Shown here piece after piece: positions 4,294-22,127 of a DNA stretch of 32,000 bases. The stretch spans positions 1,530,001-1,562,000 of the forward strand of contig NZ_CP007536.1 in NCBI RefSeq assembly GCF_000698785.1, read 5' to 3'. How positions within the stretch are numbered: position 1 is the first letter of the stretch; each line of letters starts with the position of its first letter. The notes under the pieces are model-generated. The model saw only the letters and a program-made list of their open reading frames with translations. It was not told where the DNA came from and did no database searches. A program made the translations under genes and the position numbers. This DNA comes from Nitrososphaera viennensis EN76. GTDB taxonomy: Archaea > Thermoproteota > Nitrososphaeria > Nitrososphaerales > Nitrososphaeraceae.

Positions 4294-4538
4294 CTAGCTG
4301 GTTAGCTCCCCCCTCCTCTTCTTCTTTCTTTTTAGCCGTTGCACAATTCTCTCGTTTCCAGCCGTGATATCAAGCAGGAAAAAGGATTTGGGCATAGGCC
4401 GGGGGCTCGCTGGGGTGGGGGAGGGTAGAAGGGGAACAACGCATCGTGTCACTGTCGTCACCGCAGGATCCTTTTCCCACCTGTTTCATGCGTAAATCTT
4501 AATGTTAGTAGTAGCCACAGACTTGACACAGTACCAAG

Positions 4539-5846
4539 ATGGATAACGATTATCATCATCATTCTTCTACTACTACTGCCGCCAATCTTGCGGCGTCTGC
4601 GTCGCTCATCATCGCCCGAATTTTTTACGGGGCAAATTGGTTCAATGTAGCTGCAATATTTCCCCTGATAGCACTGGAGTTTGGCCAGGATGTCTCTCTG
4701 CTTGGCTCGATATCTGCCGCATTTCTGATAGGCGTGGGAGCGTTTCAGGTCCCGTCTGGAATATTTGCAGCCAGGCACAGCCCGCGCACATCTGCCATAG
4801 CTGGAATCGCAGTGTCGTCAGCAGCCGCCCTGGTTTCCGGCCTTATCTCCGAGGCGCCTCAGCTGGTCTGGCTGCGCTTCATTGTTGGCGCCGGCATGGC
4901 TTTCTTTTTCAGCTCCGGCGTGGTGCTCATTGCAAGGTATGCCAACAGGAATTCGCCCGGTCTTTCAATAGGGGTGATGAATGCCGCCCATTCTGTAGGC
5001 GGCATCATTGGCATTCTTGGCTGGATTGTCATCGCAGTGGCCATTGGGTGGCGGCAAAGCCTTGTCCTGAGCGGGGCAATCGGCCTTGCAACTGCACTGC
5101 TGCTGGTGCTGACAATTCCAAAAAGAGAAACTACTAAAAGCACTGATGGCAGCCCACCTCCTTCTTCCTCCCCCTCTGATCGCAAGCCGCCACTCCCACC
5201 ATCACCGCCGCTGCCGCTAAACGGCGCTGCAGTCTTGAAAATACTGTCAAACCACTCGATAGTTGCGCTTGGCCTGGTCCTTACCGGAATTCAGGCGGCG
5301 TGGGCCCTGACACTGACATTTATCGTTGTATTCCTGCAGGAACTTGAAGCCTCCCTTGAAATAATAGGGATCATCGCAAGCGTCGCCTTGATCTCTGCCA
5401 TAATTTCTGCGCCGCTGATAGGGAGGGTCTATGACAGGGTAATAAGGGATGCCAGAAAGATCCTGCTGATCTGCGGAGCCGCCACAAGCCTGGCCACTGC
5501 CGCAGTATCAACAGCAATCCTTCCTGTCATAGTAGCCGCTGTCATTGTGATCGGCTTTTTTGCAGGCGGGGCGTTTACCGTTGCCTACGCAAAGGCCCGC
5601 AGGACGCCTGTCAGGGGCCTGGGCCTGGAGCCGCCGGACTCTGGCGGCGATGGTTCAGCTAGCAGCAACTATAGCGCGCTCAACGTTGCATGGGTAAACG
5701 GCCTGTCCCTCCTGGGCGTGCTATGGATGCCTGTCGCATTCTCTTATGCAGTCCAGCATGCCGGAGGATATCCAGCGGCGTGGATGCTTGCCGGCGTCTT
5801 GACGGCCTTGTTTGTGACCGTCCCTCTGCTCAAGGTGGAAAAGTAA
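4539..5846 (+). CDS. MFS-type transporter
   Basis: 435 aa with about 12 hydrophobic segments in a 6+6 arrangement. A cytoplasmic Pro/Ser-rich central loop (DGSPPPSSSPSDRKPPLPPSPPLP) separates the halves. Substrate is unknown. Confidence 0.7.
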   Translation: MDNDYHHHSSTTTAANLAASASLIIARIFYGANWFNVAAIFPLIALEFGQDVSLLGSISAAFLIGVGAFQVPSGIFAARHSPRTSAIAGIAVSSAAALVSGLISEAPQLVWLRFIVGAGMAFFFSSGVVLIARYANRNSPGLSIGVMNAAHSVGGIIGILGWIVIAVAIGWRQSLVLSGAIGLATALLLVLTIPKRETTKSTDGSPPPSSSPSDRKPPLPPSPPLPLNGAAVLKILSNHSIVALGLVLTGIQAAWALTLTFIVVFLQELEASLEIIGIIASVALISAIISAPLIGRVYDRVIRDARKILLICGAATSLATAAVSTAILPVIVAAVIVIGFFAGGAFTVAYAKARRTPVRGLGLEPPDSGGDGSASSNYSALNVAWVNGLSLLGVLWMPVAFSYAVQHAGGYPAAWMLAGVLTALFVTVPLLKVEK

Positions 5847-5959
5847 AGAGAGACACACACATATCGCCACCACAAGTCTCTTTTCTGGTCATTTGGGGTA
5901 GTGTGTCTTGTAAAAAAGAGAAAGAAAGGGATGAGGTTTTCCTGTTTTTTGCCCGTGTT

Positions 5960-6553
5960 TCAAGCCTCTTCTTCTTCAGGAATATCTGTTGAGGGATCTG
6001 TCGGTGCCGTTGTCGGCTTGAAATCCGCCCTCAGGCTGTACGTCACGTCAAACGGCTCTGCATCTAGCGAGTGCAGGGACAAGGATTGTCCCGTGAAACT
6101 GGATGCGCCGTTTTCCTCGCTTGGACTTGCCAGGGTGTCCCCATCGACCACCAGAGTCACGTTTGCGCTTGAGGACCAGATGATGTCGCCAGACCACTGA
6201 AACCCGCTGACAGGCGGCAACAGAAATACGCCCTCGACCCCATCGTGGATCCGTGAAGAATGGATTGTCCGGGCAGAGACGAATATGCTGCCATTGACCA
6301 CCACTGTCGTGTCATCATTTCCCGGCACCTCCGGAATTTCAGGCTCGGTGCCGTTGGTCATGGGCGGTTCCGGTAGCGTGTTGTTGTTTGCAGGAGGTAC
6401 GGGCGTCGTGTTGTTTGCCGGCGGAACATAAGGCGCGTACGAATAGTACTGGGGTCCCGGCGCCTGCGCCTGTACAGGAATAACAGCAATGGCATAAGAA
6501 AGCGCCGCTATCACTCCAAGCGTTGCAAGCGTGTAAATATTCGTGTCCTTCAT
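5960..6553 (-). CDS. secreted/anchored protein of unknown function
   Basis: I chose the ATG at 6553 (MKDTNIYTLATLGVIAALSYAIAVIPVQAQA, signal-like). A Pro/Asn-rich linker, a beta-rich body and an acidic tail (PEEEEA) follow. The ORF track extends the ORF to 6607. Confidence 0.45.
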   Translation of the reverse strand: MKDTNIYTLATLGVIAALSYAIAVIPVQAQAPGPQYYSYAPYVPPANNTTPVPPANNNTLPEPPMTNGTEPEIPEVPGNDDTTVVVNGSIFVSARTIHSSRIHDGVEGVFLLPPVSGFQWSGDIIWSSSANVTLVVDGDTLASPSEENGASSFTGQSLSLHSLDAEPFDVTYSLRADFKPTTAPTDPSTDIPEEEEA

Positions 6554-6738
6554 CGGTTTCAAACCGGCCATGACATGCCAGAAATACATTAGGGAAGTCA
6601 TTTTCATACGATTATGCCACTAACGTGTTTCTACCACTATTCTACACAGCCTTTCTTTTTTTATTCAGAGTTCAAAAATAAGGCTTGCTTAAATGGCCTG
6701 CCCTCGTAGAATAATTAGCAGCAGTGGCATCGGGATAC

Positions 6739-7304: not shown

Positions 7305-8405
7305 GTGCTGGTATTCTTTGTGCAGGCATCTCGCAGATGTCTTCTATCACTCTTGATAATCATTACCTCATTTTCGACCATGTTCCAGTATGCGTTCATA
7401 ATAATGCCCGCTACAGCGGCAGCAGTAAACACTCGACCCAATTCAATGACTGGCTCGCCGGCATTTCTAATGCGAGAAAGCGAAGAAGGCGTATTCGCAT
7501 CAGTTGATCAGTTAAGCCGCGACCATCGCCATTTAGCCATGCAGGAACAACAACCACCCAGCATCTCTGGAGGCAGCGACACCGATGCATCGAACAATAC
7601 ATCATCACCACCACCATCATCATCTCCTCCTACTCCTGCAAGGAGTCAATCCATACCTTTCCTAACAGTTGTCGCGGATCAAGCTACCAGCACGGTTTTT
7701 CCAGGTTCCGGCCAAGTGCTAAAACTAATGATAGATGTCAGAGAAGGCAGAGGAGACATCTTGGTAAATACAAATATTTTCTCAGGAGGGTTGTGGCAGA
7801 ATTCGGCCAGGATAGCGGCATCGGTAGCCCAGTCCTTAACGCACGTTGACCTCTCTTCAAAAGAGGTGATACTTACGATAAAGAGCACAAACGCTACAGA
7901 AAGTGAAGAGGTATTAAGAAAATTCGGCGGCGGTGTCGATGGTCCAAGTGCCGGCGGAGCCATGACCGTCTTGCTAATTTCGGAACTTGAAGGAAAGGCA
8001 ATTAACAACTATACAGCCATGACAGGAACGATCAATCCAGACGGCACTATCGGTCCTGTTGGAGGGGTCATAGAAAAGGCGGTTGCAGCAGGAAAGTACG
8101 GGGCAAAGGTAATGCTGGTTCCAGCGGGCCAGGGTTATTATCCAGAATTGTCTTGCAAATATCAAGAACCACAACCATCATCATCATTGTCATCGTCGTC
8201 TTCCAGCGCGCTAACGGACTCGCAAATATGCAGGTTAGAGCAAAAGCCACTTTCAGCTTTGATGGAATCGCGGTACGGCATGAGGGTGATAGAGATTCCG
8301 GACGTGCAGTCAGCATTGCGTTATTTCCAGTCTGACAGCGGCAACGGGACAACAATTGTAGACTCGCCACATCACCAAAAACAACTGGAAGGTGGCCCAC
8401 CATAG
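7305..8405 (+). CDS. secreted/anchored Lon-type (S16) serine protease domain protein
   Basis: The Lon_C catalytic dyad context is present: VDGPSAGGAMTVLLISELEG (Ser) and GPVGGVIEKAVAAGKYGAKVMLVPAGQ (Lys). There is no AAA+ module. The N-terminus is hydrophobic and is followed by a Ser/Pro linker. The start is uncertain (GTG 7305 or ATG 7380). Confidence 0.7.
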   Translation: MLVFFVQASRRCLLSLLIIITSFSTMFQYAFIIMPATAAAVNTRPNSMTGSPAFLMRESEEGVFASVDQLSRDHRHLAMQEQQPPSISGGSDTDASNNTSSPPPSSSPPTPARSQSIPFLTVVADQATSTVFPGSGQVLKLMIDVREGRGDILVNTNIFSGGLWQNSARIAASVAQSLTHVDLSSKEVILTIKSTNATESEEVLRKFGGGVDGPSAGGAMTVLLISELEGKAINNYTAMTGTINPDGTIGPVGGVIEKAVAAGKYGAKVMLVPAGQGYYPELSCKYQEPQPSSSLSSSSSSALTDSQICRLEQKPLSALMESRYGMRVIEIPDVQSALRYFQSDSGNGTTIVDSPHHQKQLEGGPP

Positions 8406-8475
8406 AGACGGAACCGCCCACAAAAAACAAATCAAAACCCATGGAGGTGGGGAAGGAGGAGGAGAAAAATAACAT

Positions 8476-10299
8476 ATGAGCATGAAAGCGGTGATTATGG
8501 CGGCGGTGATGATGGCTATCGGAAAAAGAAGAAGGATATCGTCGCATGCGGCGGCCCTAGCGACTCTTCTTGTGATTATTGCGTTGCTGAATACAAGCTT
8601 TGAATCAAGCATTTTATTTCAGCAGCAAGGTCAACAATCATCATCCATTCAGGCCTTTGGGCAACAACAAGACGAGGAAGGCACCAGCAGCAACAACAAT
8701 AGCAACCTGATAAGCGGCGATGATAATAAGAATGATGATGGTGGTGCAGCTATCAACCTGAGCAACGATAACGGAACGTCATCCTTTTTCATGACAGCCG
8801 AAGATGTCAGCAGCAACGCCATGATAGCCGCCTCGGGTAATAATGTCTACGCAGTCTGGGTAGACAATAGCACAGGGCTGCTGGGCAGTTACGACATTTT
8901 CTTTGCAAGAAGTGCAGACGGCGGAGACTCTTTTGACAGTCCTGTGGACCTCAGCACGCCTATCCGGAACAATGGTAGCACATATGGGAATTCTTACTCG
9001 CCACAGATCGCTGTCTCTGGAAACAATGTCTATGTTACATGGATTGAAAGTGTTTACGCTCCTTCACAAGACAGACAAGACACCCACATACTATTTTTGA
9101 GGAGTGATGACGGCGGAAGTACCTTCCAGGGCCCCATTGACATAAGTGGCGGCACATCGGGAATTCCAGAACCAGAATCACTATCGCTTGCTTACCCGCT
9201 GTATTCCAGCAATCCACAGATCGCCGTTTCCAGAGATGATGATGATTATAATGAAGGTACCGTGTATGTTGTTTGGACTGTCCATCCATTAATAATACCA
9301 GCGACAGACACGCAGCAGCAAGAAGAACGGGTTGGAGAAGGAGACATTTTCTTTACCAGAATCGGGCCAGACGGATCATCAACCGAACCTGTAAACCTGA
9401 GCAACAATACAGGCGAATCGCGCTTTCCCCGCATAGGATTGTCGGGGTCCAATGATGTCTACGTGGCGTGGGCAGATGATACCTATGGCGATGGCGAGAT
9501 ATTTTTCAGGCACATCTCAGATAATGGCTCCACGCTTGGGCCAGTTGTCAATATCAGCAGCAACTATTTCCAGGACGACAAGCCGCAGATAGCGGCTGAT
9601 AGGAACAATGTGTATGCAATATGGCAAAACTATGGGAAAAATGAAACCGGCGGGACAGTAGGAGCAATAGGGTTTGCATCAAGCCAAGACAACGGCACCA
9701 CATTTGGCGAACCAATGTTGGTCATGACCACAAAGATTGATCCTGCTATAGGCCCACTCCATAACCTGGCCACCATTAGTACTGCTGCTGTTACTACTGC
9801 AGGCAGGAACCTCGATCAGACAGGCAACGTCAGCTCTAATGGCAATAATAATAATGATGATGATGTCTTTGTCGTCTGGTCCGACGGAACAATTGGAAAT
9901 CGCGACATATATTTCTCAAAAAACAATGCCACGAGCAACGACAGCCCCTTCTTCCCCTACTATTACTGGACCATAAGCGACAATGCAGGAGAGTCTCTCC
10001 TGCCAGAGATTGCGGTCTCGGGTAGCGGCAATGTCTATGTGGTCTGGATGGACAATGCTTCAGGGACATACGAGATATACTTTAGAGAAGCCAACTTTAC
10101 GACGACAACAAAAACAGCAACAAATGGCAATAATGATTTCGAAGTAACATTTTCAGACACCATAAATATTAGCAATACCACCGGCAACTCCATGTTCCCA
10201 CAGATAGCTGCAGAAGGTAACAACGTCTATGTCGCATGGGAAGAGTATGCCAGTGATGGCGAGAACCCGGAGATCTATTTCAAAAGGATAGAACGATGA
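8476..10299 (+). CDS. membrane-anchored Asp-box (BNR) beta-propeller protein, sialidase-like fold
   Basis: 607 aa with an N-terminal anchor (AAALATLLVIIALL). Asp-box motifs SADGGDSF, SDDGGSTF, SQDNGTTF and SDNGSTL are present. About 8 blade signatures recur (NNVYAVWVD, NNVYVTWIE, VYVVWTV, DVYVAWADD, NNVYAIWQN, VFVVWSDG, NVYVVWMDN, NNVYVAWEE). Confidence 0.7.
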   Translation: MSMKAVIMAAVMMAIGKRRRISSHAAALATLLVIIALLNTSFESSILFQQQGQQSSSIQAFGQQQDEEGTSSNNNSNLISGDDNKNDDGGAAINLSNDNGTSSFFMTAEDVSSNAMIAASGNNVYAVWVDNSTGLLGSYDIFFARSADGGDSFDSPVDLSTPIRNNGSTYGNSYSPQIAVSGNNVYVTWIESVYAPSQDRQDTHILFLRSDDGGSTFQGPIDISGGTSGIPEPESLSLAYPLYSSNPQIAVSRDDDDYNEGTVYVVWTVHPLIIPATDTQQQEERVGEGDIFFTRIGPDGSSTEPVNLSNNTGESRFPRIGLSGSNDVYVAWADDTYGDGEIFFRHISDNGSTLGPVVNISSNYFQDDKPQIAADRNNVYAIWQNYGKNETGGTVGAIGFASSQDNGTTFGEPMLVMTTKIDPAIGPLHNLATISTAAVTTAGRNLDQTGNVSSNGNNNNDDDVFVVWSDGTIGNRDIYFSKNNATSNDSPFFPYYYWTISDNAGESLLPEIAVSGSGNVYVVWMDNASGTYEIYFREANFTTTTKTATNGNNDFEVTFSDTINISNTTGNSMFPQIAAEGNNVYVAWEEYASDGENPEIYFKRIER

Positions 10300-11959: not shown

Positions 11960-12916
11960 TTGCGACTAACGAAAAATATCTTCGAAAGTGTCACCGGGAA
12001 GCTCATCAGGACAGGTCTTCTGCTTTCACTTTTCATGATTGTTCTTACTGTTTCGATTCCGATGAAACCGATTGCGTTTGCAGCGGATTCTTCTAGTAAT
12101 AATCATACGGAAGAGCTCAGGAGTTTACACGAACAATTTGCGAAAGAGGCCAATGTCGCAAATAATGTTGTCGTTGCTGCTGTCGCCGGTGATTCTGCCG
12201 ATAACTCTGGTAAGAAAACCGATTGGTCAGACATTGAGTATGCCCGTGACAAGAATAATATCACGATGGTGGATTACAAAAACCTCTTTGGCCTGCAAAT
12301 AGGCAAAGTCTACAATCCTAACTTTGTCGACGATGCTGACTGGTTTCTCAAAAACTATGAAGATCATGGCAATTATTACCTGGTACCGTATAACTACGAC
12401 TGGTTCTTTTATTCTCACATACCAGCTCCCTGGTACGGATGTGAGGCTCAGAGTAAGGCGATGCTCGTGACCGCCAAAGAATACAATGAGACAGGAGATC
12501 GCAGATACCTGGAATTTTCCAAAAAAGTACTCAATGGCTTTAATTCCACAACCATGAACCATGACGGATGGCTTTTGGGCGTGGTGGGAAAGAACCACAA
12601 TGTCGCCATACTGAACAGTCAGCTGTTTTGCGTTGCGAATTTGATGACTTATTACGAATACACAGGGGACGAGAAGGCGCTGACATTATTTCAGAGTGGG
12701 GTAGACGTATTAGAGAAGAACATCGGTAACCTGACGGCAGATTGTGGCACATACTATTCCCTGTTTAAAGATAGGTTCGTGCCGCACCACGAGCATCCCG
12801 AATACATGGAGATGCTGGACAGGCTCTATTCTATGACGGGCAGCGCCACGCTGAAAAACACGCTGGATAAATGGCAGCATGACTACCTAGCCTGCGGCAA
12901 AGGCAGCCCTCAGTAA
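11960..12916 (+). CDS. secreted D-glucuronyl C5-epimerase C-terminal-domain-like protein (alpha/alpha barrel)
   Basis: The N-terminal signal/anchor is LLLSLFMIVLTVSIPMKPIAFAADSS. APWYGCEAQSKAMLVTAKEYNETGDRRYLEFSKKVLNGF matches the pWySAMaQGqaiS...Y..tgd..YL pattern of the C5-epimerase C-terminal family. A later segment (ILNSQLFCVANLMTYYEYTGDEKALTLF...YMEMLDRLYSMTG) also matches. The start codon is TTG. Confidence 0.5.
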   Translation: MRLTKNIFESVTGKLIRTGLLLSLFMIVLTVSIPMKPIAFAADSSSNNHTEELRSLHEQFAKEANVANNVVVAAVAGDSADNSGKKTDWSDIEYARDKNNITMVDYKNLFGLQIGKVYNPNFVDDADWFLKNYEDHGNYYLVPYNYDWFFYSHIPAPWYGCEAQSKAMLVTAKEYNETGDRRYLEFSKKVLNGFNSTTMNHDGWLLGVVGKNHNVAILNSQLFCVANLMTYYEYTGDEKALTLFQSGVDVLEKNIGNLTADCGTYYSLFKDRFVPHHEHPEYMEMLDRLYSMTGSATLKNTLDKWQHDYLACGKGSPQ

Positions 12917-14782: not shown

Positions 14783-15889
14783 GTGGTTCGATTCCGGTAT
14801 CTCGCATTGGTCAAGCCAACAGTCGTTTCTCCCGATGATGTACAGAACGACTACGAGGAGCCTTGGCAATCGCCAAACGCCATCGGCGTAAATTTTGGTG
14901 CAGCTCAGGCAGCCTACTATCAAAACCGGCCAGACGAAAACCCACCTTTCTTTTATGTTGAGGATTCCATGAAGATCTTCCGGCAGGCCGGGATCCGCAC
15001 GATCCGGGTCCCTTTCTATTGGGAGAGCTACGAGCGCAACCGGCAGGAATTCTACAAAGACCTGTTTCATATTCTGGAACAAGCCAGCATCAACAACCTG
15101 CAGGTTGTCCTGGATAACCATCAGTGGGAAACGGGCAGCTGGCTTGGATGGGGCCTTGGCTTTCCCAATTCTATCCTGTCAGTATATTATCCCAAGGGCT
15201 CCGGGCAACCAAACTATGACCATGTCAGAGACTTTTGGTTTCGATTTTGGGACAGGACAGCCAGAGACAGCAATGGCCGTGATGTATGGGAACTGCACGT
15301 CGAATTCTTCAAAGAGGTGGTTACGCTGACAAGGGACCATCCGGCCGTCGTTGCCTACGAGATACTGAATGAGCCCGAGGTTTGGCGTAAAGCGGATTAC
15401 TTCAAAATCAGCCAGTACAATGCTTTCATGCTTGGCCAGCTACGGCCGCTGGCACGGAGCTGGCACAGGTTTGTCATCTCCTGGGCTCTGCCAAGAGGAG
15501 GCGTGACAGACACCGCGGGACGCCAAAGGAGCCAGTTTGCCGGCCTGCCGGATCTCCGGGATCTTATCTATGATGGCCACGCCTATCCGCCGAACCATTT
15601 CCGCTTTTCCTACTTTCGCTCTATCGTTGCTCCACTGGGCTTGCCGCTATGGATTGGCGAATTCAATTCCGGGTTTACAGCAGGGGTCACGCTTGGCAAG
15701 AAACAGCTGTTTCAATACATACGCAGGTTCAAGAACAGCGGCGTTTGCGGCTGGCAGCTGTGGAAATTCGACTATAGATTTGATTCTAACATACCGGCAT
15801 TTAATCTAGCTCGGATAATCAACAACAGAATCAAACCTGCAGAACCCTTTTACCATCTAGCAGAAGCAATCAGCACCATAAAGCCATAA
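14783..15889 (+). CDS. glycoside hydrolase family 5 (cellulase/mannanase superfamily)
   Basis: All GH5 landmark residues are in order: IRTIRVPFYWE (Arg), VVLDNHQW (His), YEILNEPEV (acid/base Glu), DGHAYPP (His-x-Tyr), LWIGEFNSG (nucleophile Glu), GWQLWKF (Trp). The start is GTG, directly after a TAA. No signal peptide is present. Confidence 0.8.
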   Translation: MVRFRYLALVKPTVVSPDDVQNDYEEPWQSPNAIGVNFGAAQAAYYQNRPDENPPFFYVEDSMKIFRQAGIRTIRVPFYWESYERNRQEFYKDLFHILEQASINNLQVVLDNHQWETGSWLGWGLGFPNSILSVYYPKGSGQPNYDHVRDFWFRFWDRTARDSNGRDVWELHVEFFKEVVTLTRDHPAVVAYEILNEPEVWRKADYFKISQYNAFMLGQLRPLARSWHRFVISWALPRGGVTDTAGRQRSQFAGLPDLRDLIYDGHAYPPNHFRFSYFRSIVAPLGLPLWIGEFNSGFTAGVTLGKKQLFQYIRRFKNSGVCGWQLWKFDYRFDSNIPAFNLARIINNRIKPAEPFYHLAEAISTIKP

Positions 15890-16517: not shown

Positions 16518-16811
16518 TTGTCAGTGTATGACCGGCGACAGGTCGTATCCGAGATCCAAAAGACGTTACGTGAATTCTTGTTTACCGAAACCGAGGTTTT
16601 CTACTACCATCTTGAAAATGTAGGTGTAAGCCGTGACGAAATACTGGACAAGCCAGAGCAGTTCGTTGATGCGCTTCACGACATCTTTGGAAACGGAGCC
16701 GCGCTGATAGAAAGCGCCATCATATCAGAGATATCAAGCCAGAATACGGGCTCCACCGCAGAGCAGAGCCTTGTTGATGTACTAAAGTCCATCGAGAGGA
16801 GGGCGAAATGA
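16518..16811 (+). CDS. small helical protein, first gene of the GT2 module
   Basis: 97 aa with no internal Met (start TTG 16518 or GTG 16524). Its stop overlaps the start of the next ORF as ATGA. The motif VFYYHLENVGVSRDEILDKPEQFVDALHDIFGNGAALIESAII resembles small thaumarchaeal domains, but I could not verify this. Confidence 0.5.
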   Translation: MSVYDRRQVVSEIQKTLREFLFTETEVFYYHLENVGVSRDEILDKPEQFVDALHDIFGNGAALIESAIISEISSQNTGSTAEQSLVDVLKSIERRAK

Positions 16812-17779
16812 GCGGCATGGGGCTTGATAGTAATAACAGGAGCAGCATGGATCTCAAAGATGATAGCACGCTTGCATTCCTGGCGTCTTTTGCAAAAAAG
16901 CACAGGGAGGACATCCAGCCACAGTTTAGGCACGGCGTCGGCATAATCTATGAGATAGAGAACGCGGACCTTTCCTTTGAAAGGATAAGGAATTATGAGC
17001 AGGAAAAATTGCTATCGGTGACAGGTTCCAGGTCCTACTCTGCATGCCCCAGATGCAAGAGCCTGCTTCTATCACTCAGGCTCTCCTGCCCCGACTGCAA
17101 GAAACTCTCCCTTGCAAGATCAGAGATAATGATACACTATGGCTGCGAATACTCCGGGCCGGTGGAAGAGTTTGTCTCTCAAAAGGACAGCGAGTACGTG
17201 TGCCCCAAGTGCTCAAAGCAGATGAAGCGGGTGGGAATCGAATACGGCAGGCCGGGCATAGGATTCAAGTGCCAGGACTGCGGAAGGGTTTTTCAGTACC
17301 CTCTTGTGAACGCAGTCTGTCATAACGGCCACGAGCTAAAGGTCGATGAAATCGACCTCCAGCATTTTCCCGTGTACAGGATCAATGACGAAATACGGAA
17401 CTTTGCAGAAGTGGCCGAGTATTTTGCCTCGATTCAACAGGCACTGGCAGGCAAAGGCCTCGAGGCCCAGGTCCTCTGCAAGATAAGGGGAGGAAGTGGC
17501 GTCATCCACATTATACCACTTGTAGTGAGGGCAGGAAAGACGCAGGTTATTGTGGATTTTATCCTGGATGAATCAGGATTTGACGCCAAGATCCTGCAAA
17601 AGATACTGAGGGGGGCAGATCTCAGCAAATACGTCATGCTCTTGTTCGTGCCGGAAGGCCTGGTCGGCAGACTTGCACCGATCGTCAACCCGGAGAAGAT
17701 AAAACTCGTGCCTCTTTCCGGCAACAAGAAGAAGGATCCGGCTGCTGTCGCGGAAGAGGTAATCAAAGCTGCAGGCTAG
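16808..17779 (+). CDS. double zinc-ribbon protein with a C-terminal alpha/beta domain; function unknown
   Basis: 323 aa with two Cys4 ribbons (CPRC...CPDC and CPKC...CQDC). The C-terminal domain is GSGVIHIIPLVVRAGKTQVIVDFILDE...YVMLLFVPEGL. The gene is translationally coupled to the upstream ORF and ends 25 nt before the GT2 start. Confidence 0.6.
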   Translation: MSGMGLDSNNRSSMDLKDDSTLAFLASFAKKHREDIQPQFRHGVGIIYEIENADLSFERIRNYEQEKLLSVTGSRSYSACPRCKSLLLSLRLSCPDCKKLSLARSEIMIHYGCEYSGPVEEFVSQKDSEYVCPKCSKQMKRVGIEYGRPGIGFKCQDCGRVFQYPLVNAVCHNGHELKVDEIDLQHFPVYRINDEIRNFAEVAEYFASIQQALAGKGLEAQVLCKIRGGSGVIHIIPLVVRAGKTQVIVDFILDESGFDAKILQKILRGADLSKYVMLLFVPEGLVGRLAPIVNPEKIKLVPLSGNKKKDPAAVAEEVIKAAG

Positions 17780-17804
17780 GCGCGTCGCCGTCTTTGTTGC
17801 ATGC

Positions 17805-19103
17805 ATGTCGGCGCTTGCGGCCTTTGCTGCACTGATGCCATCGGCGTTTCTGTTTTCACTGGCTGCGGGAATTACCGCCATCTACACGGCGTGGGGCGTC
17901 TACCACCTCATAGTCACAATATCGGGCATAAAGCCTCCACTGAGCCCCGACACGAGGCTTGAGGTCTACCCCAGAATCTCTGCAATAATTCCGGCCAGAA
18001 ACGAGCCGATACTCGGAAGGACGATTGAGGCCTGCCTTTACCACGTTGACTACCCTCAGGACAAAAAGGAGATAATTGTAGTCGTCGACGACGAGGGAGG
18101 CGAGCGCATTGCGTTCTGGTACCAGCAAAAGCACCCGGAGACAGTCAAGGTGCTGGCGCGGCGCCAGTTTTTTCCTACAAAGCCATCTGCGCTAAACGAT
18201 GCCATGCTGCTTTGCACCGGGGACATCGTGGTGATAATGGACGTGGAGGATATTCCTGACAGGGACGTCTTCAAAAAGGCAGCCGCAGCCATACAGGGAG
18301 GCAAGCAAGCGGTGCAGGTCATGCTGCGCATTGGCAACACCGAGGACTCGTGGATATCCAGGATATTTGCAATGGAGTACGCAGGGTGGTTCCGCATTAT
18401 GCTCAACGGCAGATCGAACCTGAAAATGTTTGCACCGCTTGGCGGCACGGGTAACTACTTTAGCAGGGCCGCCCTGCGTTACGTGGGCGGGTATGAGCCG
18501 ACTAACCTGGCAGAGGATGCCGAACTTGCAATACGGCTCAGGATTGCCAGGTGGAATGTCTCGACGCTTGACGCCCGGCACTGGGAAGAGGCGCCGGTCA
18601 AGTTTGACGCATGGCTCAAGCAGAGAACCCGGTGGTTCCGCGGATGGATGCAGAGCTTCTGGAAATACGCTGGCATATTGTTGCTCCAGCCAACCGTTGC
18701 AAGAAGGATAGGTTTTCTGGGAATATTTTCAACGCTTGTGATGCTGGTCAGCCCACTGATAGTGGTGCTCAACTGGATCGCATACGCAATCACCGTGCTA
18801 TGGCTGCTGGAAGGGGCAGGATTGGTTCCGCAGTTTATTACCGCCGATACGGTTCCTTTCTGGACAATAATACCGCTTGGATTCAACGGCCTTTACTACT
18901 ACATCTGGATAAAGGGGGCCAGGCTGGAAGGCATAGAGGTAAAGACCTTGAAGTATCTGCCGCACATGTTCTTTTACATGAATGTCATGATGCCCATCGC
19001 ATCTTTGCGGGCTTTTTATCAGGAGCTTTTCAAGTCAGTCTTTTGGGAAAAGACCACGCACCACGGAAGAGGAGTAAGGTCGACTGCGGTGGAGAAACAT
19101 TGA
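17805..19103 (+). CDS. processive family-2 glycosyltransferase (membrane beta-glycan synthase; BcsA/PgaC/IcaA/NodC-like)
   Basis: GT2 synthase motifs occur in order: ISAIIPARNEP, IIVVVDDEGG, VVIMDVEDIPD, GGTGNYFSRAAL, LAEDAELAIRL, QRTRWFRGW (Q-x-x-RW). Two N-terminal and at least four C-terminal hydrophobic helices are present. Confidence 0.85.
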   Translation: MSALAAFAALMPSAFLFSLAAGITAIYTAWGVYHLIVTISGIKPPLSPDTRLEVYPRISAIIPARNEPILGRTIEACLYHVDYPQDKKEIIVVVDDEGGERIAFWYQQKHPETVKVLARRQFFPTKPSALNDAMLLCTGDIVVIMDVEDIPDRDVFKKAAAAIQGGKQAVQVMLRIGNTEDSWISRIFAMEYAGWFRIMLNGRSNLKMFAPLGGTGNYFSRAALRYVGGYEPTNLAEDAELAIRLRIARWNVSTLDARHWEEAPVKFDAWLKQRTRWFRGWMQSFWKYAGILLLQPTVARRIGFLGIFSTLVMLVSPLIVVLNWIAYAITVLWLLEGAGLVPQFITADTVPFWTIIPLGFNGLYYYIWIKGARLEGIEVKTLKYLPHMFFYMNVMMPIASLRAFYQELFKSVFWEKTTHHGRGVRSTAVEKH

Positions 19104-19229
19104 GAGAGAGGAGCAAAAAAAGGCAGCAGCAATTCACCGGGCGCTTTGAAAGATTGGCGGACAGGTTTTTATCAGATTAGCTTCAATTACAACGTACATG
19201 CACACACACTCAACAAGAGGAGGGGCCAT

Positions 19230-19427
19230 ATGCAAGACATGAATGAGGTTCTTTTCACATTCGTACTGCCGTCATACTCACTAGCAACCATAGTCGTGAT
19301 TTACACTCTGATAGGCCTCTTCATTTCTGCCATGTCTGCGCTTGCCCTATACAGGATGATTATTGGCAAATCCAAATCTTTGACAACGCAAGACGACGAA
19401 TTTGGCCATCCTTTCAAAAGGGAATAG
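19230..19427 (+). CDS. mini membrane protein (65 aa) downstream of the GT2 synthase
   Basis: ATG at 19230 is preceded by GAGGAGGGG. A hydrophobic stretch of about 38 aa (VLFTFVLPSYSLATIVVIYTLIGLFISAMSALALYRMII) is followed by a charged tail. Confidence 0.45.
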   Translation: MQDMNEVLFTFVLPSYSLATIVVIYTLIGLFISAMSALALYRMIIGKSKSLTTQDDEFGHPFKRE

Positions 19428-19564
19428 CACAATTATGAAATTTTATTCTAGGGAATTTCTACTATATAACATATTTACAGAATAGACGACAAAATAATAA
19501 TGGCCTTCGAGGGGTTTTGGGAAGGCAAATAAAACACGAGAACAAAGAGAGCATAGCAAATATC

Positions 19565-19933
19565 ATGAGTTACAACAAGCTGACTCCTGAAGAAGAAAGA
19601 GTAATAGTACACAAGGCAACAGAACCTCCTTTCTCTGGAGAATATGACAATTTTTACGAACAGGGCACATATGTATGCCGACGATGTAATCAGCCTCTTT
19701 TTTCATCCAAGAGCAAGTTTGATGCAGGGTGCGGATGGCCCGCCTTTGATGACAGTTTTCCTAACGCCATAAAACGTCTGCCAGATCCGGACGGAATAAG
19801 AACGGAGATAGAGTGCGCAAGATGCGGCGCTCACCTGGGGCATGAATTTATTGGAGAAAACCTGACGGCCAAGAACACCAGAGAATGTGTCAATTCGTTG
19901 TCCATACGTTTTATCCCTGCTGCCAGGACATGA
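19565..19933 (+). CDS. msrB: peptide-methionine (R)-S-oxide reductase
   Basis: Zn-binding CRRC and CARC pairs are present, with GCGWPAF, GHEF and the catalytic RECVNS motif. I chose the ATG at 19565 (MSYNKLTPEEE). Confidence 0.9.
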   Translation: MSYNKLTPEEERVIVHKATEPPFSGEYDNFYEQGTYVCRRCNQPLFSSKSKFDAGCGWPAFDDSFPNAIKRLPDPDGIRTEIECARCGAHLGHEFIGENLTAKNTRECVNSLSIRFIPAART

Positions 19934-20475
19934 AGACCGAGATTGCTACGCTTGCCAATGGCTGCTTCTGGTGTTCTGAAGCAATATTCAGCCGGCTTAA
20001 AGGCGTCAAATCTGTCCTACCCGGCTATTCAGGAGGAAAGGTTGAAAATCCATCGTACGATGATGTATGCACAGGAAGGACAGGCCATGCAGAAGCCGCT
20101 CAGATAGAATTTGATCCAGTGGTTATTTCTTTTGAAAAACTGCTTGACGTTTTCTGGCATACCCACGATCCAACCACCCTGAACAGACAAGGCAACGACG
20201 TAGGCACACAATACAGGTCAGCAATATTTTACCACGATGATAAACAAAGAGAGATTGCAGAAAATTCAAAAAGAGAGCTTGAGGCCAGAGGCATCTACAA
20301 AGACCCCATCGTGACAGAGATCGTGCCTTTTAAGAAATTTTACGCCGCGGAAGATTACCACAAGAAATACTATGAACAGCATCAGAACGCTCCGTACTGC
20401 AGGTTTGTCATCGAGCCCAAGGTCCGTAAGCTGCTCAAGCAATATGGAAAGGACGTAAGGAACGAGTTTAGTTAA
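19930..20475 (+). CDS. msrA: peptide-methionine (S)-S-oxide reductase
   Basis: The GCFWC active site, GYSGG, HAEAAQIEFDP and QGNDVGTQYRSAIFY motifs are present. The ATG at 19930 overlaps the msrB stop as ATGA. Confidence 0.9.
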   Translation: MKTEIATLANGCFWCSEAIFSRLKGVKSVLPGYSGGKVENPSYDDVCTGRTGHAEAAQIEFDPVVISFEKLLDVFWHTHDPTTLNRQGNDVGTQYRSAIFYHDDKQREIAENSKRELEARGIYKDPIVTEIVPFKKFYAAEDYHKKYYEQHQNAPYCRFVIEPKVRKLLKQYGKDVRNEFS

Positions 20476-22055: not shown

Positions 22056-22127
22056 GCGGTCATGGTCTAGTGGTTATGACTCGGGCTTCCCAAGCCCGAT
22101 ACCCGGGTTCGAATCCCGGTGACCGCA
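22056..22127 (+). tRNA. tRNA-Gly (anticodon CCC)
   Basis: A 72-nt cloverleaf folds by hand. Acceptor GCGGTCA pairs with TGACCGC plus discriminator A. The D arm is GTCT-AGTGGTTA-TGAC, the anticodon arm CGGGC-TTCCCAA-GCCCG and the T arm CCGGG-TTCGAAT-CCCGG. CCA is not encoded. Confidence 0.9.

Follow-up and report, generated by a model that had tools for sequence, protein, structure and literature searches.

A TackOD1 zinc-ribbon gene strictly paired with a membrane glycosyltransferase gene in Nitrososphaera viennensis and across the class Nitrososphaeria: a candidate control subunit for archaeal surface-sugar synthesis

The locus

We analyzed a stretch of 32,000 nucleotides (nt) from the genome of Nitrososphaera viennensis EN76 (contig NZ_CP007536.1, positions 1,530,001 to 1,562,000, forward strand; hereafter the window), and within it four adjacent open reading frames (ORFs), NVIE_018110 to NVIE_018140, all on the plus strand. 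A preliminary description, made from the sequence alone, had read these ORFs as a candidate exopolysaccharide-synthase system comprising a small protein, a double zinc-ribbon protein, a family 2 glycosyltransferase (GT2), and a mini membrane protein. Comparison with related loci reveals that the second and third genes, encoding a TackOD1 protein and the GT2, make up a two-gene core that is strictly conserved across the class Nitrososphaeria; that the first, judging by its sequence relatives, is a real third member restricted to the Nitrososphaera clade; and that the fourth is effectively refuted as a conserved component.

The layout originally described for the four ORFs agrees with our reading at every point (Table 1): the stop codon of NVIE_018110, a gene with a TTG start, overlaps the start codon of NVIE_018120 in an ATGA, read in the letters as 'gaaATGAgc'; 25 nt separate NVIE_018120 from NVIE_018130, and 126 nt separate NVIE_018130 from NVIE_018140, whose ATG is preceded at 5 nt by a Shine-Dalgarno-like GGAGG. 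The original GenBank starts lie 60 nt later for NVIE_018110 (77 amino acid residues [aa]; the extra letters are window 16518-16577) and 39 nt later for NVIE_018120 (310 aa; window 16808-16846). The longer forms of 97 and 323 aa are backed by RefSeq and by alignments of homologs, and it is they that create the ATGA overlap. The reality of the first three genes is backed by the sizes of their families and by transcription in N. viennensis cultures (PMC12448741, Dataset S2).

Table 1. Coordinates of the four ORFs and of the domains of NVIE_018120 within the window
Feature	Position	Strand	Remark or basis
NVIE_018110, 97 aa, NitrOD5-like	16518..16811	+	TTG start, no internal Met
NVIE_018120, 323 aa, soluble TackOD1 protein, putatively Mrr-like	16808..17779	+	Pfam, AlphaFold2 model, synteny
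Zinc-ribbon core of TackOD1 domain, residues ~76-192	17033..17383	+	invariant Cys/His
C-terminal alpha/beta domain of NVIE_018120, residues ~193-323	17384..17776	+	Foldseek, Mrr_cat in paralogs, motif comparison
NVIE_018130, 432-aa membrane GT2	17805..19103	+	Pfam, AlphaFold2 model, Foldseek, motifs
NVIE_018140, 65-aa ORF with a single transmembrane segment, non-conserved neighbor	19230..19427	+	ORF from ATG

Conservation of the TackOD1-GT2 pair

When the TackOD1-family alignment was scanned over one genome per GTDB species, 34 loci were recovered from Nitrososphaera, Nitrosomirales, Wolframiiraptor, Geocrenenecus, Caldarchaeales, and other Nitrososphaerota. In 34/34 of these species-representative loci the next same-strand gene after the TackOD1 gene is a GT2 closely homologous to NVIE_018130, with E-values ranging from 1e-46 (for a gene cut by the contig end) to 1e-264. 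The reverse test, starting from the GT2 homologs P0173 (48% identity) and P0142 (55%, from Nitrosocaldus), placed a TackOD1 gene directly upstream in 4/4 loci. The TackOD1 stop and GT2 start are 25 nt apart in Nitrososphaera and elsewhere overlap by 4 to 23 nt, and the span of the pair takes in Nitrososphaerales, Nitrosomirales, Nitrosocaldus, and Caldarchaeales. We conclude that TackOD1 and GT2 are a strictly conserved two-gene core across the class Nitrososphaeria; the zinc-ribbon and GT2 genes had been supposed to belong together, and in both directions of search they do.

The pair also duplicates as a unit: in one locus (L034) it is tandemly duplicated (4439-6723 and 7914-10223) and the copies are mutual nearest relatives, with the GT2s 70% identical and the TackOD1 proteins only 41% identical. 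A mirror-tree correlation of r = 0.95 between the TackOD1 and GT2 families was discarded as evidence of interaction, such a value being expected from shared vertical descent.

What accompanies the pair varies with the clade. In four Wolframiiraptor-type loci, two tandem 77-aa Lrp/AsnC RAM proteins (L017 7246-7805, L018 4045-4519, L020 755-1228, and L021 7381-7855) stand just upstream of TackOD1-GT2, and this stand-alone RAM pair occupies the slot that the NitrOD5-like gene holds in Nitrososphaera. In a clade whose GT2 is ~510 aa long (L030-L038), a gene for a NAD-dependent nucleotide-sugar epimerase/dehydratase precedes the pair in 6 loci and one for a DUF998 membrane protein follows it in 7 (for example, L035 6521-7471 and 10541-11092). 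In the metagenome-assembled genome NZ_1224 (L004 / L011 5918-8178), the TackOD1 and GT2 genes are each split into two ORFs, reflecting either frameshifts (pseudogenization) or assembly errors.

The GT2 enzyme

NVIE_018130 matches Pfam Glyco_tranf_2_3 (E 5e-26) and belongs to a family of at least 415 clusters. The motif set of processive synthases attributed to it in the preliminary description is present at the places given there, with DDE at residue 95, DVED at 146, AEDAE at 236, and QRTRW at 273; D96, D146/E148/D149, E237/D238, and Q273, R274, R276, and W277 are invariant in 46 GT2 homologs. The AlphaFold2 model (predicted local distance difference test [pLDDT] 90.9, predicted TM-score 0.89), with ~5 predicted membrane helices, has a BcsA/hyaluronan-synthase-like fold in which a GT-A domain sits on a membrane-helix bundle. 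Foldseek aligns this model with BcsA (4p00) over ~440 columns including the membrane part (TM-score 0.64-0.67, E 5e-17 to 7e-17), with the Chlorella virus enzyme CvHAS (E 1e-15), and also with Xenopus hyaluronan synthase, PcManGT, and plant CesA. Scores against the NCBIfam equivalogs are 64 bits for EpsU (NF041865; cut-off 700), 56 for PgaC/IcaA (TIGR03937; 422), 46 for CelA (TIGR03030; 699), and 34 for NodC (TIGR04242; 550), and by these measures NVIE_018130 is not an ortholog of any curated synthase. A W-E-K-T-x-H-x-G-x-G sequence (window 19041-19076, residues ~413-424), invariant in the same 46 homologs, falls in a low-confidence tail past the last helix. It may be a gating loop, as BcsA and the hyaluronan synthases have theirs in this place. 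None of the four proteins of the locus has a Pfam match to PilZ or a related c-di-GMP receptor, and the earlier observation that no known partner is present holds, there being no equivalent of PilZ, PgaD, or IcaD.

These data bear on whether the enzyme is processive at all. It might instead be a transferase that forms lipids, N-glycans, or oligosaccharides (as for PcManGT, NodC, and GT21) rather than a processive exopolysaccharide synthase, its partner still being a regulator or adaptor. In keeping with this, PcManGT (6yv7) is the closest sequence match of the GT2 in the PDB (E 4e-10; TM-score 0.73 on target), a weak Glyco_transf_21 match is found (E 1e-5), BcsA has more membrane helices than are predicted here, the gene has no conserved companion for export, hydrolysis, or an outer structure, the synthase equivalogs all score far under their cut-offs, and biofilm induction is weak (see below). 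Against it, i) the QRxRW and ED motifs are invariant; ii) the top fold matches, BcsA and the hyaluronan synthases, extend through the membrane part; iii) the best NCBIfam similarities are all to exopolysaccharide synthases (EpsU, PgaC/IcaA, and CelA); and iv) the invariant loop past the last helix lies where gating loops would be expected. We regard a non-processive enzyme as unlikely, but as an alternative that carries real weight.

The TackOD1 protein

The preliminary description had found NVIE_018120 reminiscent of TackOD1, and by profile score it is a true TackOD1 protein, matching PF18551 over residues 45-190 at 100.7 bits (E 9.7e-29; gathering threshold 32 bits), as do 23/23 orthologs; its family comprises 29 clusters. 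The AlphaFold2 model (pLDDT 82) begins with a short alpha/beta region, continues with a zinc-ribbon core rich in beta structure (~76-192) and then a long helix, and closes with a compact alpha/beta domain (~219-323). There is no hydrophobic segment, and the protein is soluble. The two Cys4 zinc ribbons originally recognized are there, as four CXXC motifs (CPRC80 with CPDC94, and CPKC132 with CQDC155), together with a Cys2His2 pattern missed at first (H110-x-x-C113 and C171-x3-H175) which is probably a third metal site. The family shows no variation at C80, C83, C94, C113, C132, C135, C155, C158, C171, or H110, and almost none at C97 and H175. The published TackOD1 pattern has eleven cysteines, arranged as five CXXC motifs and one HXXC (Galperin et al. 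2018, PMC5847659); NVIE_018120 has four CXXC motifs and the HXXC (H110-C113), but its fifth site is C171-X3-H175 rather than CXXC.

For the C-terminal domain, the fold class given in the preliminary description (alpha/beta) stands, but the domain, in which no enzyme motif had been recognized, can be placed: model and sequence together indicate an Mrr-like PD-(D/E)xK fold that is degenerate and has probably lost catalysis. Foldseek matches it to AF1548 (1y88, E 1e-4), VC1899 (1xmx), Bax1, Can2, the R2 endonuclease domain, and Hjc, and Pfam Mrr_cat (PF04471) scores above cut-off in the same region of the paralogs P0234, P0304, P0321, and P0269. Mrr_cat gives no match with NVIE_018120 itself, and among the 23 orthologs it matches 1, at E 0.005. 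The paralog motif GxSGxxHxFD...AKxxD is replaced in the GT2-linked subfamily by GxSGxxHI(I/F)P...VDFI. We read catalysis as lost because the canonical residues are not in place: the Asp of HxFD is Pro237, and the beta-3 triplet, D250-F-I252, is without Lys.

Paralogs and the wider TackOD1 family

A profile of the 323-aa family matched 2255 representatives (clustered at 50% identity), of which 198 reach E <=1e-30. Most of the top 150 relatives match nearly the whole profile, and therefore the zinc-ribbon module and the Mrr-like domain normally travel together. Longer members (P0229, P0240, P0304, P0320, and P0321) are REC-TackOD1-(Mrr_cat) response regulators; P0321 (779 aa) has a second GKSGAEHDFD motif, and thus apparently two nuclease-like modules.

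A paralogous TackOD1-Mrr-like subfamily (~20% identity to NVIE_018120) was sampled in 80 metagenome loci (L048-L127), none of which has a related GT2 within 7 kb; nor is there a GT2 neighbor at P0029 (24% identity). Neighbors in the 80 loci are instead KaiC-like ATPases (39), T2SSF/PilC-like proteins (~30), and a second tandem paralog (29), in agreement with the published assignment of arCOG06883 to type IV pilus loci of thaumarchaea (Makarova et al. 2016, PMC4858521). Up to three KaiC-like ATPase genes stand next to the paralog in this set (for example, L079 3129-3893 and L073 8101-8916). The link to a GT2 is thus confined to a single orthologous subfamily, and different paralogs appear to be dedicated to different membrane machines. 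Occurrence mostly away from GT2 genes, which the preliminary description had named as an argument against its own reading, is thus seen among the paralogs only, not among the orthologs.

The 97-aa NitrOD5-like protein

The family of NVIE_018110 comprises 26 clusters at 52-99% identity, with members of 77-119 aa that are helical and acidic (median isoelectric point [pI] 5.1). Its supposed resemblance to small Nitrosopumilus-type output domains is real, as 15/18 family members match Pfam NitrOD5 (PF11537), but weak: NVIE_018110 itself scores 18.8 bits (E 0.0019) against a gathering threshold of 27 bits, and all matches are below threshold, the best at E 2e-4. The gene precedes the TackOD1-GT2 pair in Nitrososphaera-type loci (L001-L012 and L016), where it overlaps or abuts the TackOD1 gene in most cases, usually by 4 nt, while hmmsearch, run twice and the second time or the first with --max, detected no homolog in the thermophilic clades or Caldarchaeales-type loci. 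On this sequence evidence we take NVIE_018110 to be a genuine, lineage-restricted third member, and the conserved neighbor that had been proposed holds up within the Nitrososphaera clade. Weakly NitrOD5-like small ORFs also occur near the Nitrosomirales operon (L015 3209-3535 and 5931-6287; E 0.002 and 0.025) and in one pilus-type paralog locus (L060 10092-10571; E 4e-5).

In L015 (Nitrosomirales) and L022 the same operon position holds a protein (312 and 301 aa, respectively) with an N-terminal REC domain (E 5e-17 and 5e-16) whose C-terminus matches the 97-aa profile, both by hhalign (probability 98%, E 1e-13 and 5e-14) and by hmmsearch (E 1e-18). A REC domain is absent from NVIE_018110, but these fusions tie the small protein to two-component signaling.

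Expression in N. viennensis

A 2025 transcriptome study compared biofilm with planktonic cells of N. viennensis (PMC12448741, Dataset S2). All three genes are transcribed and each is up in biofilm (adjusted P <=2e-7): the log2 fold change is 0.52 for NVIE_018110 (adjusted P 2e-7; 113 transcripts per million [TPM] in biofilm and 97 in planktonic cells), 0.64 for NVIE_018120 (2e-8; 112 and 88), and 0.72 for NVIE_018130 (3e-12; 24.5 and 18.3), whereas the value for the upstream glycoside hydrolase family 5 (GH5) gene NVIE_018090 is 0.19 (0.21; 16 and 17) (PMC12448741). The three genes are therefore expressed and shift together, unlike their GH5 neighbor, and the TPM values of NVIE_018110 and NVIE_018120 are nearly equal (113 and 112 in biofilm). 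In the same table, N. viennensis is flagged as the sole holder of the three families, which N. franklandianus and N. maritimus lack (PMC12448741).

A control subunit for the synthase?

The reading we favor, tentatively and with a probability of about 0.45, is that the TackOD1 protein is dedicated to the GT2 as its regulatory or adaptor subunit in the cytoplasm, fed by NitrOD5-like, REC-fusion, or RAM signal proteins. NVIE_018110, NVIE_018120, and NVIE_018130 would then be one operon encoding a GT2 sugar-polymer synthase and its own cytoplasmic control proteins; the TackOD1 protein would be made together with the synthase, dock on its cytosolic face, and gate its activity as an obligatory subunit; and NVIE_018110 would be the signal-input piece, an output domain of response-regulator type that stands as a protein on its own. 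The REC-fused form of Nitrosomirales and one further lineage would let phosphorylation by a histidine kinase act directly on the complex, and in other clades different small input proteins, such as the two Lrp/AsnC RAM ligand-binding proteins, would fill the same slot. Control of polymer synthesis by phosphorylation or ligand might thus stand in place of bacterial c-di-GMP/PilZ or PgaD. We favor a subunit because of the 100% adjacency, the coupling by overlap, the duplication of the pair as a unit, the restriction of the GT2 link to one subfamily, the REC fusions, and the joint shift in biofilm. The synthase nature of the enzyme is supported by its fold and motifs, and by the nucleotide-sugar epimerase/dehydratase gene found next to the pair in 6 loci of one clade.

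Several observations weigh against this reading: i) modules such as zinc ribbons and nuclease folds typically bind nucleic acids; ii) the position of a regulator gene at the head of an operon also fits an autoregulator, as with ArsR in arsRBC; iii) the rise of the three genes in biofilm is significant yet modest; iv) GT2 mRNA is ~4.5-fold below that of the two upstream genes, so that the stoichiometry is not 1:1; v) no histidine-kinase or REC gene neighbors the N. viennensis locus itself, and although several other Nitrososphaera loci are flanked by such genes, two-component genes are abundant in Nitrososphaera genomes and these adjacencies may in part be due to chance; vi) earlier-proposed biofilm candidates, including carbohydrate-active enzymes, were reported not to be differentially expressed, with the exception of adhesion genes (PMC12448741); and vii) the NitrOD5 match of NVIE_018110 stays under the Pfam threshold.

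The first, second, and fourth of these points lead to the chief alternative, in which the TackOD1/Mrr-like protein would be an operon-specific DNA-binding regulator or autoregulator acting on the promoter, modulated by the NitrOD5-like protein or REC fusion, so that control of the GT2 would be transcriptional. Its domain types are classic nucleic acid binders (the Foldseek relatives include Mrr-type nucleases, Bax1, Hjc, and R2, and Mrr_cat is found in paralogs); the REC-fused paralogs resemble response-regulator transcription factors, and a REC-wHTH-TackOD1 architecture is listed by Galperin 2018 (PMC5847659); a separate paralog for each kind of operon (GT2 or type IV pilus) is usual for pathway-specific regulators; and regulator transcripts outnumber those of the GT2. 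Yet neither a helix-turn-helix (HTH) nor any other DNA-binding family was found in 23 orthologs or 40 paralogs (63 members); in the REC-wHTH-TackOD1 architecture, DNA binding is already supplied by the winged HTH; and overlap-coupled adjacency in 100% of loci at class-level divergence, together with duplication as a unit, is tighter than is usual for regulators. The pI of the TackOD1 family is neutral (median 7.0), which counts against DNA binding, although overall the pI analysis did not discriminate. We consider a promoter-binding regulator improbable, but plausible enough to be kept in view.

Neighboring genes

The 65-aa ORF NVIE_018140 had been included as a fourth component, which would make it a PgaD/IcaD-like co-synthase subunit. 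It has the right strand, a position close downstream of the GT2, one hydrophobic helix, and the GGAGG noted above. However, in 42 related loci we found neither a homolog (tblastn E>0.4) nor a positional analog in the form of a small hydrophobic ORF downstream of the GT2; its 90%-identity cluster has 2 members; in the closest other species an opposite-strand REC gene takes its place, beginning 84 nt past the GT2; and it is missing from the RefSeq-based expression table. A four-gene system is therefore not borne out, and a co-synthase role for the 65-aa protein is very improbable.

Synteny with the trio elsewhere was found for none of 14 other window genes (GH5 and 13 more). Upstream of the operon lie the GH5 cellulase-like gene NVIE_018090 and a D-glucuronyl C5-epimerase-like gene (window 14783-15889 and 11960-12916). 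Both were considered as members and rejected, GH5 being neither syntenic elsewhere nor co-regulated, and the epimerase-like gene not being syntenic elsewhere. Directly downstream, in overlapping frames, are msrB (SelR) and msrA (PMSR) (window 19517-20475), which are not syntenic with the operon elsewhere and are unrelated to it. Farther on are a tRNA-Gly(CCC) gene (window 22056-22127) and, next to it on the opposite strand (to 22873), a fragment of a TnpB-like ORF bearing a Cas12f1-like TNB domain, beside which the genome annotation adds an HTH_OrfB_IS605 piece; the fragment is probably a decayed IS200/605 element. That the TackOD1-Mrr-like protein is an active nuclease of a defense system or mobile element, with the GT2 a mere neighbor, as its nuclease fold and this TnpB/IS605 remnant 3 kb downstream might suggest, is most improbable of all, given Pro237 in place of the canonical Asp, a D-F-I triplet without Lys, no PADLOC matches, and vertical inheritance with the GT2 across the whole class.

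Comparison with known systems

The locus is like known systems in combining a synthase with putative accessory control proteins, but the partners are unrelated and the implied type of signal is different. With BcsA (PilZ) and BcsB it shares the architecture of a GT-A domain with membrane helices, the D, DxD, ED, QxxRW active site, and, on our proposal, control of a membrane synthase by a cytoplasmic signal-receiving module. It differs in that the N. viennensis locus lacks PilZ and BcsB, its enzyme is roughly half as large, with a smaller number of membrane helices, and the module proposed to exert control is carried on a protein of its own whose fold is unrelated (zinc ribbons and an Mrr-like domain). 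Two-component phosphorylation or contact between proteins, rather than c-di-GMP, would be the signal. PgaC-PgaD and IcaA-IcaD likewise pair a small GT2 synthase (~410-440 aa) with a small co-encoded partner, but the PgaC_IcaA model scores 56 bits against its 422-bit cut-off, and, unlike PgaD and IcaD, which sit in the membrane, the conserved partner at this locus is a soluble protein; the only small membrane ORF near the GT2 is not conserved. PcManGT of Pyrobaculum calidifontis, which has a minimal cellulose-synthase-like fold, is the closest solved archaeal relative and a strong fold match; the sequence alignment with it ends before the QxxRW helix, whereas NVIE_018130 goes on to the invariant QRTRW and additional helices toward its C-terminus, and PcManGT is not known to have a TackOD1 partner.

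The literature describes TackOD1 (PF18551 / arCOG06883) as a ~200-aa zinc-ribbon domain of obscure function found in response regulators and type IV pilus loci (PMC5847659, PMC4858521). NVIE_018120 belongs to it by profile score and shares the CXXC/HXXC zinc pattern, but represents a distinct orthologous subfamily tied to a GT2 and not to pili, has CX3H in place of the fifth CXXC, and has the Mrr-like C-terminal domain that accompanies most of the top 150 relatives. Similarly, the 97-aa family is comparable to NitrOD5 (PF11537, DUF3227; 'archaeal Death-domain-like') in size, in the sub-threshold matches of most of its members, and in occurring both alone and in REC fusions, as described for NitrOD5 (Galperin 2018, PMC5847659), but stays under the gathering threshold and is a separate, GT2-operon-specific family.

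Existing annotation already names NVIE_018120 'TackOD1 domain-containing metal-binding protein' (RefSeq) and NVIE_018110 'Nitrosopumilus output domain-containing protein' (UniRef). In the literature searched we found no main-text mention of the NVIE_018110-018140 tags, and no link between TackOD1 and a glycosyltransferase; these sources also appear not to report the association with a GT2, the Mrr-like domain, the fusion of the small protein to REC, or the split into GT2 and pilus subfamilies.

Implications

Archaeal two-component systems end in output domains, and archaea are largely without c-di-GMP signaling. The names TackOD1 and NitrOD date from 2018, when the function of these output domains was called obscure (PMC5847659). 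For TackOD1 and the NitrOD5-like domain the locus offers one membrane glycosyltransferase as a target that is concrete, conserved, and open to experiment in a cultivable ammonia oxidizer, and the description of the TackOD1 family gains an Mrr-like domain.

We wish to distinguish this from a broader and rather unlikely proposal: that TackOD1-Mrr-like proteins are general archaeal adaptors which plug REC/NitrOD5-like or RAM signals into membrane machines that build surface structures, with the former nuclease fold serving as a docking module. If this were true, one subfamily would serve cellulose-synthase-like GT2s and others type IV pilus or KaiC machines, and such adaptors would fill the role of the bacterial c-di-GMP/PilZ network. 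For the GT2-linked subfamily itself, the subunit reading provides a candidate answer to how archaea control the synthase-type polysaccharide production relevant to soil biofilms, and suggests a new and testable way in which archaea may switch surface-sugar production on and off.

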